A stretch of DNA of 58,900 nucleotides, filler included, from Bipalium vagum (Eukaryota): the NCBI GenBank assembly GCA_037834085.1. It is 3 parts of 3 records of this genome, joined end to end, with 100 filler letters (N's around TTAATTAATTAA, not from the genome) between each part and the next. Parts side by side here need not be neighbours in the genome. Positions count along the whole stretch, not along the records: positions 1 to 16,883 come from JBBMKC010088243.1; positions 16,984 to 35,758 come from JBBMKC010015835.1; 1 more part is not named here. The stretch is one strand, 5' to 3'. The notes under the pieces were generated by a model. It did no database searches. It was not told the origin of the DNA and was given only the letters and a program-made list of their open reading frames with translations. A program made the position numbers and the translations under genes. Shown here piece after piece: positions 1,779 through 38,560 of the stretch. Each line of letters begins with the position of its first letter. Position 1 is the stretch's first letter.

Positions 1779-4700
1779 AATTTCAGAAAACCGTTATATC
1801 CAGTTCATAATATAAAAACATTAAACAGGCAATATGAAGAGGAAAAGAGAAGGTTGGCACAAGGCATTCCTTCACATTGTTGTTTTATAGCTCTAAATCC
1901 GATAATGAATGAAGATTTAAGACCAACAATAAAAATCCGAATAAATAAGCATCATGTACATGCACTAATAGATACCGGTTCACAATCAACCCTATTAGAT
2001 GCCAGAATGCTTAACCAACAAGAAAAAGAATAAATGCAGAGAACGGACAGTACAATAATATGGATAGATGGTAAACGAATGCCACTATTAGAAACCCTTG
2101 AGTTTATTGTCACGATTTTAGATCAAAAAAGTATTACATAATGTGGATATAATGGAAAATAATTCCAACGAAAAAATAAAGCTTGTAAATTGGCAGAAAC
2201 AGTAGTAATTGAAGAGATTACTAAAATTCCACCTAGATCAGAACAAATTTGTCTAGTAAGTACAAATTTGAAAGAAGGAGACGAATTAGTCTTTGAACCA
2301 ACCATAATAAACAATAAAAATGAATATATTGTGGTATGTGACAGTGTTGGCATAGTAAAAAATGGAAAACTTACAATCAGAGTAGCCAACCTGGATATAA
2401 AACCAGTAGTGTTATTACCTAATACAGTAAATAAATACGAATTAGTTGTTCATACCACAGAAAAGAGGAAATATAAATATTATGAGCCTGTAAAAGTAGA
2501 AACTCCTACCTTGACAAAAGAACAGCAAGAAAAATTTACCTCTTTGTTGCGAAAATATCCAATAGTGTTTGCAAAACACGACTATGACATTGGACAATCC
2601 ACAATTTTGAAACATAAAATTCCTCTATTAGTTCAAAATCCCATTAAACAAAGGCCATACAGAGTGCCATATGCTCTAATACCCGAAATGGAAAAGACTA
2701 TTGACACTTGGCTTGAACAGGATATAATCAGACATAGCTCATCGCCATGGTGTTCACCTATGTTATTGATAAAAAAAGAAAGGATGTGAATGGCGACTAT
2801 GTATTGACTTTCTTAAAATAAATGAGGTAACAATCAAGGATAACTATCCTTTACCACTTATTGACGAAATGTATGATACATTAGGACGGTCTACTATATT
2901 CTGTACGATCGATCTACAAAGTGGGTACCTCAATATCGAAATAGAGGAGGAATCAAAACCAATAACCGCTTTTGTGACCAATAAAGGGTTATTTGAGCTT
3001 AATAAAATGCCGTTCGATCTCACGAGCGCACCAGCAACTTTTCAGCGGTCCATGAATATAATGTTAATGGACATAGATCATGCTATGGTGTATATTGATG
3101 ACATCATAGTTTATTCAGAATCCTTTGAGCAACAATTAAAAGATGTTGAAAATGTGTTAAAAAGGATAAAAATAGGAGGTTTTAAAATAAAACCATTCAA
3201 ATGTGACTGGGGAAAAAACTTAGTCAAATATCTCGGACATGTAATATCAGCAAAAGAGATAGAAACAGATCCCGATATTGTAAAGAAAATTATCGATACA
3301 CCAAATTCGAAAACAGTTAAAGATGTACAAACTGTATTGAGAATCGGTAATTATTACAAAAGGCAAATAAAAGGATTTGCATCCATAGTAGCCCTAATCA
3401 CAAGAAACACCATTCGTATGGGAAAAGGAACAAGATGATGCGTTTAAATTATTGAAACAAAGGTTATCTGAAAATCCAGTTTTAAGATATCCAGATTTTT
3501 CTAAACCTTTCCCACTCATGACAGACACTAGTGGTGTGGCCATCGGAGCTGTATTAGACCAAAAGGACAACAACGAATATGCTATAGCTTATGTAAGCCG
3601 TGGTCTTAAAAATCATGAAAAACACTATGCGGCAGTAGAATTGGAGTGTCTTGCGATCATTTTCGCTATTGATAAATTTAGAACATATCTATAGGGACAA
3701 GATAATAATTCTTACCGACCATAACCCATTACAATATTTATTGAAACATAAAGACTCGATATCCAAGCTCATCAGATGGACACTTAATTTGCAACCTTAC
3801 GATTTAGAAATACAATATCGTAAAGGAAAAGGAAACCTCAACGCCAATGCCATGTCGCGACCACCGATTGCAACAGAAAATGATTTGGTGACAAACCTAG
3901 TAAAAACAGTCTGTGCAGTACAACAGACTATTACTATGAATAAGTAAATTAATTAATAAATAAATTAAGGAGAACAACGCTGCCTTAAACAAGATAAAAG
4001 ATCAGAGTATGCTCAGTCCAAGGATAAATCTCAATTAGAAAAGGTTTAGATATCCGAAGCATAGATACTCACATTTCGCGAAAATTTGGATGCAGTAAAT
4101 GTCATCCCAAAGGCATTACAAGATATAATATTACTTCAATACCATGATAGTACTCTCGGTGGACTTTTATCCATTAGAAAACATTGTCCCGTGTACGACA
4201 AAAATATTACTGGCCAACATTGTGCGAAGATATTAAAAAATGGTGTAGAACATGCCCAGTATGTCAAACACGGAGAAACACGGAGGAAAAGTTTAAAATG
4301 CCATTAAAGCCAATGCCAGTACCACAAGCACTCATAGAAACAATCGCAATGGATATAACAGGACCATTTCCCGTATCCATAAATTGGAATGCTTATATTT
4401 TGGTCATGTGAGACTATTTTACTAAATGGCCTGAAGCTTACGCCATACCAAATCATCAAGCTAGCACAATAGCCAAAATATTTGTGGAAGAAATAGTGTT
4501 CCGATATGGAGTACCAAAGAAACTCCTAACTGATAGAGGAACAGAATTCATGAGTAATTTACTGGCAAGTATCAATGAATACGTCGGTATATTGAAAATT
4601 AATACTTCACCATATGACCCTCAAACCGACGGGTTAGTTGAACGATTGAACTACACACTAACAAGCATGTTAGCTAGTCATGTAAACTCATCTCAAAGAG

Positions 4701-5290
4701 ACTCCCTTCCTGTCTCTTTGCATATCGCAATGCGGTACATTTAGGAACACGATATACTCCATATTATCTAATGTACCTTCGAAATTCTAACATAACCGTA
4801 GACCTAATATGGCATACGCCCGTATCTCATCTCTCTGATGAAGAAAATTATCTATATCAAATGCGAGAAAGATTGCAGAAAACATGACCTCAAGTAGGAC
4901 TTTCTTTATTATATAGTCAAGAAAATATGAAAGACTACTACGATAAAAAGGTTAACAGTCAGCCATTAAGAGTTGACGACTTGGTCATGTTAGAATCCCC
5001 AGTGATCAAGAAAGGGCAAACTCAAAAACTAAATAGACCATTCAAAGGTCCATATAAAGTTCTAAAGGCTTTAGATGTAAATGTAGTATTAATTGATCCA
5101 AGAAAACCACAAAAGGAACTGATAATGGTTCATATGAATAGATTTTTAAAAGTTGAATCATCACCACTAACTGACAAATCTATTGATCAACCAAAGCAGA
5201 CTAAAAAGCCTACAAAGCCTACAGCAGAAGAGGTAGACAAATCACCTCACCGATATGAATTACGGCCACCAAAACCATCAAGAGTTTTGT
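1779..5290 (+). pseudogene. pol: Gypsy pol polyprotein pseudogene (aspartic protease, RT, RNase H, integrase)
   Basis: Protease ALIDTGS (~1962); RT PIKQRPYRVP..SSPWCSP..IDLQSGY..MPFDLTSAPATFQ..YIDD (~3091); RNase H TDTSGVAIGAVL..ELECLAI..TDHNPL; integrase YYWP..CRTCPVC, MDITGPF, LTDRGTEF, PQTDGLVERLN and GPYKV. Multiple stops and frameshifts. Confidence 0.95.
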
Positions 5291-6319
5291 TTTCCTTACC
5301 CATTATAACTATGATGTATTTAATAACAACCATCGAAAGATGGATTCAATATATATAAGGACGATGGAATAGTATATGTCAATATATCAACCACGAAAGG
5401 AATGCAAAAGCGTAATTTAACTAAAAAGCGCATCAGTTTTACTTTTACAGATATACAACCAGGTGTATAATATGGAATTTTTATCAATGCTAAGATGCCT
5501 GGAAAATGCGCCAATTACCCTGGTAACAATCTCTATTGGGAGGTCAAAACTCAAAAAACGTCTAGTGGATTGGTATAAAATGAGTGATAAAAAATATCTT
5601 CTAAGAATATCCGGAAATATATATGAACAAGTTAGATGCCATTGGGGACAATCAGGAAATCGAATAGTGATCTTGACTCATAAGTATCCATGGACAATAG
5701 TGGATACAAAAGAGGATACGAAAAAATATGTACACATACAAATTTACGAAGATCAAAAATGGCAATGTAAAGAGGAAAAAAAAATTACTGGTTAAATGAA
5801 ACGGATATCATAACCACTCAGGTGAACAAAATAACGGAGAAGAGTATAATAACTACTCTAAAATATGGTAACTACGCAAAAGAGTAGTTCAGTCATAATA
5901 AAGGAAATTAATACAGTATTATCCATTACATTCACTAGTAGAGTGGTACTCAAATGGAAACTAATAAAGCGTTAACTACGAAAACACAGAAAGTTACCAT
6001 GAGTGTAACTATTTCCACAAGAAAACCTGCGAGTTATAAAACTAAAGCAGTAGTTTCAACAACCACAAGAACTAAACTTGTGCAAAATCCAATTAATTGG
6101 CACATTGAGCCTCAATTGAAAGATCAGCATTCACCACTTAGATCATATGAATTGAATATGCAAAAGAGTGAATTACATCTGGTCAAAGAAAACCACGAAG
6201 AATCATCTAAATCAACTAAGATAATAAAAATTATTATTATAATAATAATGACATTATTAATCTCTTTAAGCATAATTTCTATAATAATATTTCAAAAGAA
6301 ATCGATGCGTAATTTATGA
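5280..6319 (+). pseudogene. Env-position type-I membrane protein: signal peptide, FN3-like motif, Thr-rich stalk, TM helix, short basic tail
   Basis: Hydrophobic VLFSLPIITMMYLITT in frame after the integrase tail HRYELRP; RISFTFTDIQPGV*YGIFINAK at ~5430-5495; Thr/Ser-rich 5800-6080; TM IIKIIIIIIMTLLISLSIISIIIF followed by QKK. Frameshifted. Confidence 0.65.
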
Positions 6320-6418
6320 CAATTACAGAAATCCCCATCACAGACACTGACTCAATGGAAAAATTCTGAATCAGTTAATAAATATGTTAATATTTTAATT
6401 TTTTTTCTACTTTTAGAA

Positions 6419-8098
6419 ATGAATATCACAGAATTCGAGAAAATTCCACTGAGCCAGTATTTGGGCAAAACAGATTCGTAGTTGCTCAAATACCGAGAAG
6501 AAATGAAACGTGTGAAGAAAATGTCGGGACTATGCACTATAGTTTATAGATCACCATAAACCATTCCAAATGCCACAAAATTCAAAGAAACAGGCAAAAG
6601 GGAAAGATGGATGTTTCTAGAAAAAGAAAAACAAACAGGTTTTCTAAAGGATCTCATCCCAGAATTATCAAATCCAAACTTTTTGGAGGATATTTACGTT
6701 CACATAGTAAAAATAATCCAGTCAGACTCCATATAGGAGGAGTCGACACTGCTTTAGAGATAGATAAAGAAGAATCTCTACAAGTATTCAATCTCAAAGG
6801 GAGAACAAAACAAATAGGGATAGAAATTAAAATCCCTGGATGTGTCTTTGTTATTGAGGCAAAACAATGCGAAAGTCCATTGCCACCCATCAACACTTCA
6901 CAAGAGGCTTTTCCCTTCCTACAAGATTTTAATAACGGAAAATCCTTTGTTATAAACAGGGACTCCCATTTATCCGATCATGTCATAATGAGCACGTTGA
7001 CATCTAAAGATGGTCGAACGGGGATAACACATTTAATAGGAATTACTTTGATGCGTTTATCTACAAAAATCATTATGAACTCGGTGGTAACACCCAGAAA
7101 ACAAATATTAAATATCAACACTCCACAAGTTGGGTTGTCGAAAAAAGATTTATTAAATCAATAGGGCGAGCTACAATGCAAACATGATTTGCGAGACGCT
7201 CTCAAGGATAAAGTATTGATCGGATTCAAAGTCAATGAAATGTTAAGACTGTGCTCGGTACCTTTCTTCATTTTAAAAGAGATAAGAGAAATTGGAAATT
7301 GTCCTTATATCAATTCAATTGGAACTTATGGTCAAAAGCGACTGGGTTTATAAGTAAAACAGTCGAAGCCAGAGAGGTGCAAGATTACTTCCTCAAGTGC
7401 GAAAAAGAAGCGCGCATCATTCGAGAGATATACAGAGTAGTTTATACTAAATGGAACGAGCATGATTCAAAACCACCAATAGCAATACCTACTCAGCCAA
7501 TAACGAAACCAGCCAGAAATGAAACAGAAGAAGAGATACTAGAGATAGAAGATAAAATTGAAGATGAATAGGTATCTCAAACCCAAAGCACAAGTACGAG
7601 CACTAGTCGATTTAAAAAAAACTGGTTAGAACCATACGAAATGATCTGTATGATAAACTAGTCATTGAACAACCAGCAAAGAAAAAGCAAAGGTTGGAAA
7701 AACCCTCAATCAGGTACAAAAACGACTACCAGCAAATAACACCCATCGATACAACAGATGTCGATGGTCCGCAATTACCAATCACGAAATTCGGAAAACG
7801 AAAAATCCAATTTCAATTTGAATTGGGTAATGACGAAAAATCAATTTCAGCAGCCTTACCACTTGGGTTCAAGCTGCAAGCTGCAATATACAAAAATCAA
7901 AAAGGACAATATCTATATGCAGCAATTCCTTCTCGGGACGAGAAAGCTTCGGAGGAGTGAGAAGTGTTGGGATCCATAGAAAAAGAGGTCCCAGCACCCA
8001 TCAATTCAAATCCAAAGTCCTCAAAGGAGCCGGAGCCACTACAGCCAGAACAAGAGCTTATGGAGGATGATTTTCCAAAGCTCATAATTGACACTTAA
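6419..8098 (+). pseudogene. Orphan retroelement accessory ORF (~550 codons, broken into 6607-7164, 7251-7571, 7694-7960 etc.)
   Basis: ATG 6419 follows a polypyrimidine tract and AG (6415-16); successive long + ORFs; NLS-like PAKKKQRLE at 7673-7699; acidic/Pro-rich C-terminus ending TAA 8098, overlapping AATAAA. Confidence 0.55.
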
Positions 8099-9299: not shown

Positions 9300-10260
9300 A
9301 TGTCATATAATCTTTTTTATTTCACCCATCATGATTTTGACTAAATTTATAAGCCATTTATTTCTGAATTTTCTTTTTTGGAAGCATAGCTCCCAAAGCT
9401 TTACTCGCATTTGGATTAAAACATGGTTGAAATTTTTTTGTTATTTAGTTTATTTCTCAAGAAAATATTGTATTTTTTTCTTTGTATTGTTGAAATATCT
9501 GAAACACTTTATAATCTTTTAATTCTTCTTGACAATATATACACTTTCTTGGATTTAAATAATTGATTTTTTCATCTTCAGATATTATTATCTTATCTTT
9601 GAAAAAATTACTTGTCCTTCTTACTATTGAAGTTAAAATATTATTTATTTCATTTATAAATTCTTCTAATACATTTTCCCATAAAATTCAAAATATTTTG
9701 AGTTAAACAATTCTGGATAATCTCATAAAATCCTGCTGATAATAATTTTTATTCTATTATAAATTTTGTGTCTTCAGAAATATTTTTATTTATAAATGTA
9801 TCATAACATTCAAAATCACTGTGTATTAGAAATGAAATTCATTTCTAAAATAATGAGCTTTAAATTTACAATAATCTTCTTTTGGAAAGCTAACTTTTAT
9901 CTCTTCTTGTTTTTGGCATAATCTTATATGTTTATCAAGTAGATTTTCCGATAAATATGAATTTAAACAATTAAGATAAATGTGATTAATATTAAATTTT
10001 TTAAATGAAAATAAATTTATATTTTTACATAATACAATGACTATTAAAATAATAACAATTTTCATTTTTCTTTCTTCTATAATTGGATAAGCTATAAAAT
10101 GTTCAATATGGATTGATAACATTATTTTATTTTCATTTGTACTCTTTTCTGCTAGTTTAAATACATTTACACTAATATTATTTTGATAATTAAATTTTAT
10201 ATCTTCTAATTTCATTGGAAAATTTATATCATTTATATTTAATTCATTTATATTATATTC
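9300..10260 (-). mobile_element. Degenerate Polinton/adintovirus-like PolB-associated ORF fragment
   Basis: NNISVNVF..CLNSYLSENLLDKHIRLC..FKAHY..IHSDFEC (YADFE-like)..IISEDEKINYLNPRKCIYCQEE (CxxC typical of the endonuclease-VII-like region preceding protein-primed PolB). Confidence 0.6.
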
Positions 10261-10959
10261 ATTTATTATTTACTATGAACACTTTCGTAACACTTAGCTC
10301 GCAAAGTCTACTGACCCTTTCACTTTTGTCAATACGTGTACGCAAATGAATGAGTCAAACAACTACGAACAACGCTATTGCTAAAATAACAATAACAAAA
10401 TGTTTCCAAATAATCAATAAAATGTCTGCAATCAATCACACTGAAAATCAACGTCAAGAATAATAATCAATTAAATTAAAATTAAAAAATCAAATACCAA
10501 TATCATTAAATGTCAGCAAAGATTAAATATCAATTAATTTAAAAAGAGAAAAACAAAATCAAGATATTCTCACCACTTGTGACGACAGGTCTGGAAGAAT
10601 CCTGGAAGAAACAGGTGTGAGCCCAATCCTGTCGATAATACGTTTTGGACCAAGCATTTTAAATCTTCATCTTTTATCTTAACACAATATCGTGATGAAC
10701 TAAATGATAAGTTAACATATGAAGAACCAACTTATTTATGGTTGGGTGAGAGTGTTTGGTAAGACTGCCTGCTGCAGTTTGTTTGTTTATTTACAAGGGT
10801 CTCACTCTCATTAAATAAATTTTTATTTAGTGTGTTTTTGTGTTTCTTTTGAAGGGTGAGGTGCGAGCTCGATAGTTAGGCCCATAGCAACCATAGTAAT
10901 GTCAGGTACGCTAAGGTGGTAGGTTTGCGCCAACAATACTGTGTTGAAGTAGCTTAGGC

Positions 10960-13970: not shown

Positions 13971-14793
13971 TTAGGTCCCGTCAAAAGATTGTTCCTTATT
14001 AAGAAAAACATCACTACATAATGAGTAAGATCTAGGCTGCATAAGTGCCAAAATAACAATAGTAAACCAGAAGAAAATTACTTTCGGTATCCTTTCTTGG
14101 ACAGTCCTATTCCATTCTTCTCGAAAACTGTCGGGTAGTTGTTTAAGAATGACTTCTACGCAATTTTCGACAATTATGTTGCGTGAGGTGTTCTCAATAT
14201 CGTGCTGGCACAGTGGACAACTGCCTCCACCATATCTTGTTCTAAGGGCCCACTGTTCTAAACAGTGTTGACAAAACGTATGCCCACAGTTAGTGATTAA
14301 CGGGTTGATGAAAAATTCACAACAGATTTGACACCGCAAAACGTCCTTCAATGAACTGTTTTCCGAACATTTTCCAGTAATATTTAACAACAAATGGTTC
14401 ATCATGTTTTGACTTTCTTTAAGTTTCACATAGTTCTCATGATCTGTGAATATAAGCTGATATTTTCCGCAATCTCCCAGAGAAATTATGTCGTTTGTGT
14501 TTATTACTACACTGTCGTCAACCGCCAATGGGATTTTGTTTAATCTGGTAAGATTTGTTTTCTGAAATTAGTTTAAGATACATAAGATTTTAACTATAAA
14601 ATCTAACACTACGATTTACAATTTCCCAATGATCGATCAGATTTTTAAGGACAAATTGTTCGTGAGATAAAATGATGAGACCGATATTTATATCATTCTT
14701 TTTACCACGACCTACTGAAACCTCGTTTTTATCAAGTTTATACCTCATTCTACAAAACGAAAATTCATTCTTCCCAAATCCTAATAAATACAT
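13971..14793 (-). CDS. RNF8: FHA + RING E3 ubiquitin ligase, RNF8-like (exons 14793-14608 and 14561-14082 or -13971)
   Basis: FHA-like VSVGRG..ND..LS..F..W.IVNRS|KTNLTRLN..NDIISLG joined across a 46-nt GT-AG intron (14607-14562, phase 0); C3HC4 RING CQICCEFF..NCGHTFCQHCLEQW..CPLC followed by an RNF8-type helix. 3' end uncertain (possible donor at 14081). Confidence 0.8.
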
Positions 14794-15528: not shown

Positions 15529-16049
15529 TTAACGTTTTCCACCAACTCTTGGAGCTTTAGCTTGAGGATTTTTGTTAACTGTCTTTGGAGCTTTAGTTGC
15601 AACCTTTTTAAGTTCAGCAATCTTTCGGCTCTTCTTTTCGATTTCCTTTTTCTTATTTATTTCTTTTGCAGCTCTGATAATTGTTATGATTTAAGTATTA
15701 AATTATTTTTATTGTACCTGACTGCTTCTTCTCTCATAGCTTGACGAAATTCAGGCTTTTGGTTTCTCTTGAGCAAGATGTCATCTTTTGTGACTCCGGC
15801 AACAGCTCTTATGGGCTTAACATAACGTTTAGAACGTTTCTTGGTCTTCTCATCTTCTTGGTTACCTTTTCTATTTTTACGTCTATATAAAACAGTCCAA
15901 GATACTTCCCGAGGATTTCTTTTCATACCAAAAGACCTTTCGGATTTCTTATTAATGAAAAAGTGTATTTTACCATCAAGTCTAGCAATTTTTTTACCAT
16001 GACCTGGGCTTGCCTTAAATCCACTAAAATTACAAACCTCGTATTTCAT
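15529..16049 (-). CDS. RPL24: 60S ribosomal protein L24 (eL24), 2 exons 16049-15718 and 15673-15529, 158 aa
   Basis: MKYEVCNFSGFK..PGHG..RLDGK..KRNPREVSWTVLYRRK..KG; 44-nt GT-AG intron; canonical C-terminus KAPRVGGKR*. Confidence 0.97.
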
Positions 16050-16672
16050 TATGATTTAAAATTTCGTAATTTGACTTTTTGCAACAATTAAAACAACTTA
16101 TGGCTTTAAAATATTAGTATTTAAATCATTTATAATTTCTTATTTTTAAATTTCCGAAATTTCAGAATGTCAAAAAATATTAATTAGTTTATTAATTACT
16201 AATTTAATTTGACTTTAACTTGATTTAATTATTAGGCGTTTTTCTATTTATTTAAATAATAAGATTTGAAGGGGTTCAATCAATATACACATAGTAAAAT
16301 GAATTTTTTAAAAAACCAATTTGTTAGTTTTTAACATTTTATTTTTTGACAAAATTAAATGTTTCACTTCATTATATATTAATTGATTGATTAGTCTTAA
16401 TATTTAAGTTATAAATATTTACTATTTTTACTAATTATGATAAAATTATAATTATTATTTCAAAATAAGATTTCTACTGATAATCTACTATTGATTTCAT
16501 AATTATATAAATATGTATATAAAGGTGATAAGTTATTTACTTACATCAGGACAAAAATTTTCAAACGTCAACATATATTTTATTTATCTTTCAATATTTT
16601 GTCAGTCTAAGTTTTTACTGTCATCCGCACATTTAGGTGGTCCCATTAAAAGAATTGATTATTGTCACCACT

Positions 16673-16882
16673 TCAATCCAGTGGATTTATCAAAATATAA
16701 GCATTTTTTATTTCTTTTGATTTGTACTGGTTGAATTCCTCAGGCATTGATTCAGTTTGGAATGGGTTTTCGGCAAAGATTGCTTCTACAGCTATTATTG
16801 TATCGCTGTTCAGGACTTCGAAACACAGACTATTCTGACGTCCTTTTAGGTTAAAGGCCTTAATTGATTTTTCTTGTCCTAC
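16673..16882 (-). pseudogene. Diverged homolog of the retroelement orphan ORF (fragment, cut by assembly gap)
   Basis: VGQEKSIKAFNLKGRQNSLCFEVLNSDTIIAVEAIFAENPF aligns without gaps to IDKEESLQVFNLKGRTKQIGIEIKIPGCVFVIEAKQCESPL of ORF 6607-7164 (13/41 identities by hand). Confidence 0.7.
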
Positions 16883-16927
16883 TNNNNNNNNNNNNNNNNN
16901 NNNNNNNNNNNNNNNNNNNNNNNNNNN

Positions 16928-16939
16928 TTAATTAATTAA
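16928..16939. other. Artificial scaffold linker TTAATTAATTAA inside N gap (also 35803-35814)
   Basis: N44-TTAATTAATTAA-N44 makes a 100-nt spacer; the same linker occurs at a second gap; it encodes stops in all six frames. Confidence 0.9.
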
Positions 16940-16983
16940 NNNNNNNNNNNNNNNNNNNNNNNNNNNNNNNNNNNNNNNNNNNN

Positions 16984-17052
16984 TTAATAATTTTAATAAT
17001 TTTAATAATTTTAATAATTTTAATAATTTTAATAATTTTAATAATTTTAATA
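16984..17052. repeat. 9-bp tandem repeat (TAATAATTT)n at gap edge
   Basis: About 7 consecutive units visible. Confidence 0.85.
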
Positions 17053-17689
17053 AATCTTTAATGCATTTAGCATCATTACTTATAGAAAAACAGAATAAAT
17101 AAAAAAATGTGAAAATTAATCAATTAAAACCTTTTAAGAAAATTTCTCAGAAAATCATTAAAGAAAATCATAAGTGGGTTGAAAATTAAATTATTAATAG
17201 CAAATATAAATATAAAATATTTGCAAAATTTAATGAAAAGAATGTAACCTGATAAACTAAAAATATTACTCGAGCTATAGATCAAAATATATAAGTAAAA
17301 GAGAATCGTCACGAATGGAATATCCCGAACAAATTCCACTTGAGATCGGTGTATTAATACAATTATTTTTGTTTTTATTGCTCTTGAGCGTTCCTTCTTT
17401 ACCTCTCATCGAAAAGACAGGTTTTATTTTATGCAGTAACTATTGCAGATCAAATTAGCTGGAATGAAAATTCCCTTTTATGAAACGCGTGGGTCATATC
17501 ACAGATCCATATAATATTTCTTGTTTGTATTTCTTCAATTTGATTTATCGTTACGTTTTATTTATTCCATTATTTCTCTTTTTTTCAAAAAGTTTTAATA
17601 TTTAATTAGTTGTGTCTAAGGTTATTTTCCATATCTTGACTTGTGAATTAACCCTACAGATTATTACCATGGTGATTTCTTTGATTTTG

Positions 17690-17775
17690 TGTTTTGTTTT
17701 TACTGGGTCTCCATTCAATTTTACAGCTTCTACACCAATCTTTGACTGTCCAAGTTATGGCCAAAGGTAGTTAAT
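17690..17775 (-). mobile_element. Gypsy integrase zinc-finger remnant
   Basis: NYLWP*L..VKDWCRSCKI resembles YYWPTLCEDIKKWCRTC of the element at 4184-4411. Confidence 0.4.
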
Positions 17776-37939: not shown

Positions 37940-38560
37940 GCTCCGCTCGCTCCTTTGAATAATTAATTTTTTCATCTTCAGATATAATTATTCTATTTTT
38001 ATAATAATTACTTTCATTTCTTACTGTTTGATAAATCATTTTTTTTGCATTAATAAAATCATCTAAAACATTTTTTCCGTAAAATTCAAAATATCTTGAT
38101 CCACACAATCCATGTAACTTTGATTTAATATAAATTCTACTCTTAAAGAAAGTTGTTCAGATATCAATTTTGTATCATTTAAAATATTTTCATTTATGTG
38201 TATTATAACGATTTAAATCACTGTAAATTACACATGGTATTTTATTTCTAAAATAATGATTTTTATATTAACAATAATCTTCTTTTAAAAATCTAGCCTG
38301 ACCTCTTCTTGTTCTAGACAATCTTATATTTTCATTAAGTAGATATTCTGATCTACATGAATTAAAACAATTAAGGCAAATATAATTACTTTTAGACCTT
38401 TTATTAGAAAATATTTTCATATTTTAATATTTTTACATAATACACAATGATTATTATATTATAATCAATTATATTTTCTTTCTTCTATAGCTGGATGTTA
38501 TAAAATTTTCAAAATAGTATTTCTTCTTTCTTCTTTCATACTTATTTTTCCTGGTATAGG
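37940..38560 (-). mobile_element. Second Polinton/adintovirus-like PolB-associated fragment, same family as 9300-10260
   Basis: Shares IISEDEKINY, CLNCFNS and KNKIPCVIYSD segments collinear with the first copy. Confidence 0.6.

Follow-up and report, generated by a model that had tools for sequence, protein, structure and literature searches.

Giant gypsy elements of the Burro/GYPSM1 type from dugesiid planarians are among the closest described counterparts of the elements analyzed here; in the portion of the account available to us, the two have in common a CCHC gag, a ubiquitin-like part and accessory ORFs, as well as a mononegavirus-type env that lies in frame between gag and protease within one long polyprotein (PMC6431247). 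The same portion describes no exonuclease-like ORF, no readthrough junction and no post-integrase membrane module, and gives sizes of >30 kb and 4873 aa for Burro, as against ∼12 kb and a 3184-codon ORF in the element that we call L001 below. The gene order and the gB-type env are also shared with the GAG-ENV-POL errantiviruses of Platyhelminthes that carry an HSV/gB-type env (e.g., Smed_errantivirus_1-6), as far as the accessible parts of that study go (PMC13524379). The words exonuclease, DEDD and readthrough occur nowhere in its main text, and neither FNLKGR nor FDLKGR occurs in the accessible supplements, the rows of which are env domains and say little on this point.

An exonuclease-like extra ORF downstream of pol has a precedent in the bdelloid Juno/Vesta LTR elements and in Terminons, where a DnaQ-like ORF3 is described, in the sections at hand, as an RNase D-like DEDDy protein with an intact DEED (PMC5408684). 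Those sections also name Maelstrom and EXD1 as inactive DEDD derivatives that act in piRNA biogenesis. Single in-frame stop codons between retroelement ORFs are known from SIRE1 (pol/env), MuLV and Tca2, and 3′ contexts and hairpins matching those reported below from TMV (CAR-YYA) and the alphaviruses (UGA-C followed by a stem-loop); the available text on Tca2 indicates that junctions of this kind may involve something other than simple readthrough (PMC2194720, PMC8310308).

We analyzed a 58,900-nt stretch of Bipalium vagum DNA (the window), in which an earlier note had flagged a minus-strand frame as a diverged second member of an orphan accessory family with an FNLKGR motif, the first member being an ORF at 6607-7164. 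Our reading is that the flagged fragment (copy B) is probably a truncated, multicopy piece of the accessory gene that comes last in Burro-like GAG-ENV-POL Ty3/gypsy elements, and that this gene encodes an ISG20/REX4-type fold, predicted to be dead and likely RNA-binding.

The fragment beside the assembly gap

The minus-strand frame 16882-16676 begins at the edge of an N gap and runs through 69 codons without a stop. Its ungapped alignment to ORF 6607-7164 has 13/41 identities (BLASTP E=5e-7), and the local score of 73 was reached by 0/200 shuffles (mean 45.9, max 63) when shuffled ORF 6607-7164 was scored against all six frames of the window. Identity at the three codon positions is 21, 27 and 12 of 41, which indicates conservation at the protein level. 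The homology that the earlier note proposed is thus real, and the alignment stands up to the shuffled controls that it had called for.

The extent given in that note, from 16600 onward, does not hold. The similarity ends near 16718-16722, where a repeat also ends, and 16600-16721 is unique flank: contigs identical to 16722-16883 are found at depths of 1093 and 1201 and the flank at a depth of 21. This ∼50-fold contrast was measured in one public run that contains the window DNA and probably gave rise to the assembly; it should not be read as a copy number. Additional copies are 85-95% alike. The coincidence of the depth boundary at 16722 with the end of protein similarity marks copy B (16722-16883, minus strand) as part of a multicopy repeat of which 162 bases are visible. 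The piece breaks off at 16722, ahead of the exonuclease-like domain described below, and holds only part of the N-terminal FxLKGR module; its other end runs into the N gap (16884-16983), which we read as an assembly gap and which consists of two N runs (16884-16927 and 16940-16983) with 12 bases between them. Over the 41 residues, copy B has 19 identities to L001, 17 to L002 and 13 to the copy at 6607-7164 (copy A), and an HMM built from L001 and L002 matches it with E=3e-8. We are therefore highly confident that the fragment is a piece of the accessory gene of Burro-like elements. Its own junction, linkage to pol and exonuclease domain we infer from its relatives, and the rest of its element may sit within the N gap.

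That copy B might instead be a host exon or a domesticated gene is suggested by its position ∼680 bases upstream of, and on the same strand as, an exon of the gene for ribosomal protein L24, yet the ∼50-fold depth, the several diverged copies, the truncation in mid-domain and the finding that the relatives all lie within retroelements make this extremely improbable; the possibility raised in the earlier note that other homologs would be single-copy host exons is not what we found. Copy B is neither a host exon nor a gene by itself, but ordinary transposon debris. A closer question is whether it belongs to the same insertion as the integrase zinc finger that the earlier note had placed upstream on the same strand. 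A remnant of an H2C2 finger is probably present there (17778-17717, minus strand): ∼60 bp, split between two frames by a frameshift, with scores for two queries reached by 0/100 and 1/100 shuffles, and ranked first by nhmmer outside the element of copy A (E=0.1), although Pfam finds nothing at this site. The remnant is probably real, albeit old. In elements that have both features, the zinc finger lies 2.5-3.3 kb ahead of the FxLKGR motif and is followed by the integrase core, whereas in the window the nominal distance to copy B is ∼0.87 kb, the N count not being the true gap size, so the linkage of remnant and copy B is unproven. A single element with its parts in order and at least 2 kb missing inside the gap would account for the shared strand and order, the VKxWC..C signature that matches the clade and the faint core-like words that follow the finger collinearly. 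We nevertheless find it doubtful: the core, conserved elsewhere, is barely detectable (the collinear chain is reached by 7/200 shuffles), a comparison of 1.26 kb with RT-RNase H and the tail gave no match (28/40 and 29/40 shuffles), the remnant carries a frameshift whereas contigs identical to copy B stand at high depth, and a simple repeat borders the gap on the remnant side. Of the earlier claim, the finger has weak support, and a common insertion with copy B is doubtful.

A candidate second exonuclease remnant at 17748-17623 was rejected (1/40 and 7/40 shuffles; negative HMM domain score). Host exons lie nearby on the minus strand, one for a divergent ribosomal protein L24e (15684-16046) and one for a C3HC4 RING protein (13971-14567).

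The elements that carry the accessory gene

A search of 1.84 billion representatives returned two matches, one of which is a true relative, the 585-aa protein P0001; the other, P0002, is a bacterial Ig-repeat adhesin that matches by chance. Word-indexed homolog searches found none among longer proteins with ORF 6607-7164 as query, P0001 itself only when started from P0001, and P0001 plus a 72-aa fragment when started from the alignment. Among viral contigs, 0/4 candidates were confirmed. Metagenome contigs gave 460 pattern matches and four confirmed loci (L001-L004), all four in the same element type.

L001 has a single 3184-codon ORF, followed by the accessory ORF, which ends at a purine tract, all within ∼12 kb. 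The polyprotein encodes, in order, a CCHC gag, a gB-type env, protease (PR), RT, RNase H (RH), integrase and a membrane tail; the env lies in frame between gag and protease (PF24664, E=1e-90), and there is a weak UBX-like match (E=0.006). By eye, this env resembles the "Platyhelminthes_C1a" rows, most clearly Smed_errantivirus_4, in the accessible part of the errantivirus data (PMC13524379). No BIR, BCL2, MATH or ankyrin Pfam matches were found in L001, unlike in Burro proper. L002 runs from pol through the tail, the accessory ORF, a purine tract and a long spacer, which we read as the LTR, to a primer-site-like motif and a gag-like ORF; within this presumed LTR lies a ∼64-bp tandem repeat array (5977-6558). 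The remaining two loci are partial and 87-92% identical to L002, L003 comprising tail and accessory ORF and L004 accessory ORF and purine tract. An integrase is thus on the contig in 2/4 loci and the polyprotein tail in 3/4, the fourth locus starting inside the ORF. Both L001 and L002 have purine tracts after the accessory ORF and primer-site-like motifs before gag, and their contigs look circularly collapsed (with a 15-base end overlap in L001), which is why no pair of LTRs is seen. The relatives show that the accessory gene is the last gene, between the polyprotein and the presumed 3′ LTR. By gene order and env, the elements appear to belong with the planarian Burro-like/GAG-ENV-POL errantiviruses, and their host is likely a planarian flatworm.

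Copy A, located at 6320-7350 (plus strand) by tblastn with P0001 and by HMM scan, is a broken copy of the gene directly behind a decayed Ty3/gypsy element (element A). Three in-frame stops (6479, 6557 and 7162) and a change of frame within 6694-6709 interrupt it. P0001 matches the window with E=6e-26 over 6563-7350 (6434-7311 under a second setting); the match is spread over two frames and reads across the stop at 7162. ORF 6607-7164, taken in the earlier note for a family member, is therefore the middle piece of a broken gene and not a complete one: some 30 codons at its start lie out of frame, and the homology continues beyond its stop. Copy A may extend to ∼7960, with ORF 7616-7960 as its C-terminus, but the motif likeness there is by eye only and not significant.

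Upstream of copy A, on the same strand, element A retains a decayed gB/Monjiviricetes-type fusion glycoprotein (env) at 288-1800 (PF24664, E=8e-20 and 3e-11), 46% identical to the L001 polyprotein and placed ahead of a decayed protease-RT-RNase H-integrase region at 1900-5350, recognized by Pfam and piecewise 40-74% identical to L001. The PR-RT-RH-IN order is the same in L001 and element A. ORF translations then reveal a decayed polyprotein tail after the integrase (5300-6316), with a signal-like hydrophobic stretch, an ectodomain and a C-terminal transmembrane stretch, a layout that is intact in L001 and L002, although tblastn gives no significant match between the tail of element A and theirs. 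In these two relatives all three parts are in frame with the rest of the polyprotein (L001 residues 2855-3184; L002 residues 576-1101), and the ectodomain has no Pfam or PDB match. The tail would place a further membrane protein where env usually lies, besides the gB-type env, and possibly as an attachment partner.

Pairwise, the four lineages represented by copies A and B, L001 and L002 share 13-21 of the 41 residues compared, and copy B is nearer to L001 (19) than to copy A (13). Between L002 and L003/L004, dN/dS is 0.068 in the N-terminal module (196 codons) and 0.092 in the exonuclease-like domain (166 codons), which shows the accessory gene to be under purifying selection, as judged from substitution rates. 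L003 and L004 have the same in-frame TAA inside the exonuclease-like domain (at 2466 and 401, respectively), which indicates that truncation of the accessory gene did not stop the spread of one sublineage and that some sublineages tolerate the loss. With 13-21/41 identities and dN/dS of 0.07-0.09, the proposal in the earlier note of an old, selected family common to several retroelement lineages is borne out, as is the linkage of its members to Gypsy pol.

Elsewhere in the window, 9554-10109 and 37954-38515 are two copies of a repeat, 74% identical. A frame at 9826-10269, which by eye resembles the N-terminal remnant of a Polinton-type polymerase, and plus-strand frames at 50505-51721, which by eye resemble the end of an R2/NeSL-type non-LTR reverse transcriptase, have no Pfam match. 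The first exon of a probable calbindin/calretinin-like EF-hand protein was recognized by eye at 43616-43924 (plus strand).

The accessory protein and its expression

The accessory protein has two parts. The N-terminal FxLKGR module of ∼190 aa is the sole part present in copy B. A PDB profile search with the module returned neogenin only (E=0.48), and PHROGs gave weak matches, the best to an exonuclease family (E=0.078). We dropped as noise an aspartic protease reading (Asp, PF00026; BEL/Pao or pepsin-like), for which the atlas scored the ORF fragment at 0.90 with low recognition (2093) and 97-106 shared features; the module in P0001 has no usable aspartic protease match, and hhalign gives 0.4% against the element's own protease region.

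The C-terminal half is, as modeled, an ISG20/REX4-type DEDDh exonuclease fold. Residues 266-430 of P0001 match RNase_T/REX4/ISG20 clusters in the atlas by language-model features (0.94, 192/256 shared) and, in the same single source, by predicted structure (TM 0.83 over ∼161 residues). A profile of four copies searched against PDB sequences has ISG20L2 (E=8.3e-5), SDN1 (0.03) and ISG20 (0.39) as the top three of four matches. In copy A the domain corresponds to 6970-7350 (plus strand), as placed by the alignment and the ISG20L2 profile match. The label "orphan" used in the earlier note is thus unsupported, since the C-terminal half has this fold; it is the FxLKGR module alone that is without assignment. 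Pfam did not detect an exonuclease domain (PF00929 branch), AlphaFold models were poor (pLDDT 34 for ORF 6607-7164 alone, 45 with an eight-row alignment), and fold searches with the eight-row model gave a best Z of 5.8 and no Foldseek match with E<0.001.

The catalytic DEDD residues and the general-base His are not found: K, I or M stands in the ExoII Asp column and N or Y in the ExoIII His column, and neither Asp nor Glu occurs in the first strand of the three lineages represented by L001, L002 and copy A. The register of ExoI, the first catalytic motif, was set partly from sequence typical of the family and is to that extent provisional. One Asp is invariant, in the loop after the first strand. 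The domain is, in all likelihood, a dead enzyme, as predicted from these columns.

In all four loci that have the junction (L001, L002, L003 and copy A, representing three of three lineages), the accessory ORF is in frame with the polyprotein after a single UGA-C, a combination that makes up 2-5.5% of stop-like triplets. The bases that follow UGA are CGG-UUA in L001, CAA-UGG in L002 and L003, and CAA-UUA, a TMV-type CAR-YYA context, in copy A, where stop and context lie at 6317-6325 (plus strand) between the polyprotein tail and the accessory gene. The position of the stop, after a whole polyprotein and its membrane anchor, differs from that in SIRE1, MuLV and Tca2 in the parts of those accounts at hand (PMC2194720, PMC8310308). 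The linkers from UGA to the ATG that follows an acceptor-like AG measure 33, 38 and 53 codons, are in frame and stop-free, and would be open by chance with probabilities of 0.059, 0.036 and 0.004, which are not simply multiplied because the three lineages share ancestry. A hairpin follows the stop in L001-L003 (z=-2.7 to -5.9) and is not alignable across lineages; in copy A, z is about 0 at 60-100 nt and -2.0 at 150 nt, and in L001 the hairpin is missing at 60 nt. Between L002 and L003, 0/31 codons after the stop have synonymous changes, significantly fewer than the 23/74 of the codons beyond (p=1.5e-4) and not significantly fewer than the 12/104 of the upstream tail (p=0.07). The linker has eight non-synonymous changes and one synonymous change, the pattern expected where non-coding sequence is constrained; splicing may be the reason for the constraint. 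In all three lineages, a T-rich tract and an acceptor-like AG precede the in-frame ATG, by 2, 11 and 13 nt, with UGA-to-AG spacers of ∼97-146 nt; in copy A the tract occupies 6400-6421 (plus strand), with the AG at 6415-6416, 2 bases ahead of the ATG at 6419. Donor-like AG/GTAA sites are seen 29-37 nt upstream of the acceptor-like AG (L001 10052-10080; L002 3374-3410; L003 1602-1638). They could be a possible micro-intron or trans-splicing signal, removal of which would break the frame.

Two further alternatives concern the activity of the domain and the way in which the gene is expressed. A nuclease that is still active through a rearranged site, and that trims the ends of element RNA or cDNA in the manner proposed for the bdelloid DEDDy ORF3, would fit the strong purifying selection and the invariant Asp in the loop, and has the bdelloid proteins as a precedent, these having intact residues in the text at hand (PMC5408684); the aligned catalytic columns hold no Asp, Glu or His in any lineage, however, and we regard activity as improbable. 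The gene might also be expressed only from a spliced or spliced-leader trans-spliced mRNA, in which case the UGA would be left over from an ancestral split, and RNA processing would be what the hairpin and the conserved spacer signal. The acceptor-like AG before an in-frame ATG in all three lineages and the constraint on the linker at the nucleotide rather than the protein level both favor this, and bdelloid ORF3s are said, in the available sections, to derive from spliced messages (PMC5408684). Left unexplained would be three linkers of different length that are all multiples of three and stop-free, and a stop that is UGA-C each time. We consider exclusive splicing rather unlikely and lean toward the view that UGA readthrough occurs, which the junctions suggest with somewhat better than even likelihood.

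A proposed role and its implications

A spliced or trans-spliced short mRNA would be the main source of the product, as a free protein, and occasional readthrough of the UGA would add a version fused to the membrane tail of the polyprotein. By analogy, the protein may act as a non-cutting RNA-binding protein for the element, one that binds the 3′ ends of element RNA and shields them from host exonucleases or small-RNA trimming. Strong selection in the absence of catalytic residues suggests that the domain most likely binds nucleic acid ends or a partner. A role in shielding RNA, or as a decoy that distracts host trimming or silencing enzymes, is a tentative proposal that we put at somewhat less than an even chance. 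Maelstrom and EXD1, which retain a catalytically inactive DEDD fold for RNA binding, offer a parallel at the level of function only; as described in the portion at hand, they are host genes from other DEDD branches, and no sequence link is claimed (PMC5408684). Compared with bdelloid ORF3 as described there, the present accessory protein belongs to the ISG20/REX4/SDN1 DEDDh class, is predicted dead, is fused to the 190-aa module and lies behind an in-frame UGA; class, lost residues, fusion and UGA position together make an independent capture likely. In a bolder version, which is speculative and which we judge unlikely as a whole, a planarian errantivirus would have taken up a host exonuclease of the ISG20/REX4 type, disabled the active site and retained the protein as a pseudo-nuclease for anti-silencing or RNA protection, in a free spliced form and in a UGA-readthrough form tethered to the cytoplasmic tail of the second membrane protein, a possible partner of the gB fusogen.

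The element class and the active DEDDy exonuclease ORFs of rotifer elements are already known; the accessory gene is apparently undescribed. In the literature consulted, neither an ISG20/REX4-type pseudo-exonuclease nor a UGA readthrough junction is reported for planarian elements; other sources, such as Grohme 2018 with its supplements and Repbase, could contain an annotation of such an ORF. Few retrotransposons are as rich in genes as the planarian Burro-like elements, and the majority of these extra genes lack an assigned function. One of these can now be named as a selected pseudo-exonuclease, apparently dead as judged from its residues, of the same class as the antiviral nuclease ISG20. 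The junction ahead of it would be a new and directly testable readthrough site, and the protein is a concrete candidate for how such elements may cope with host RNA decay or piRNA silencing.
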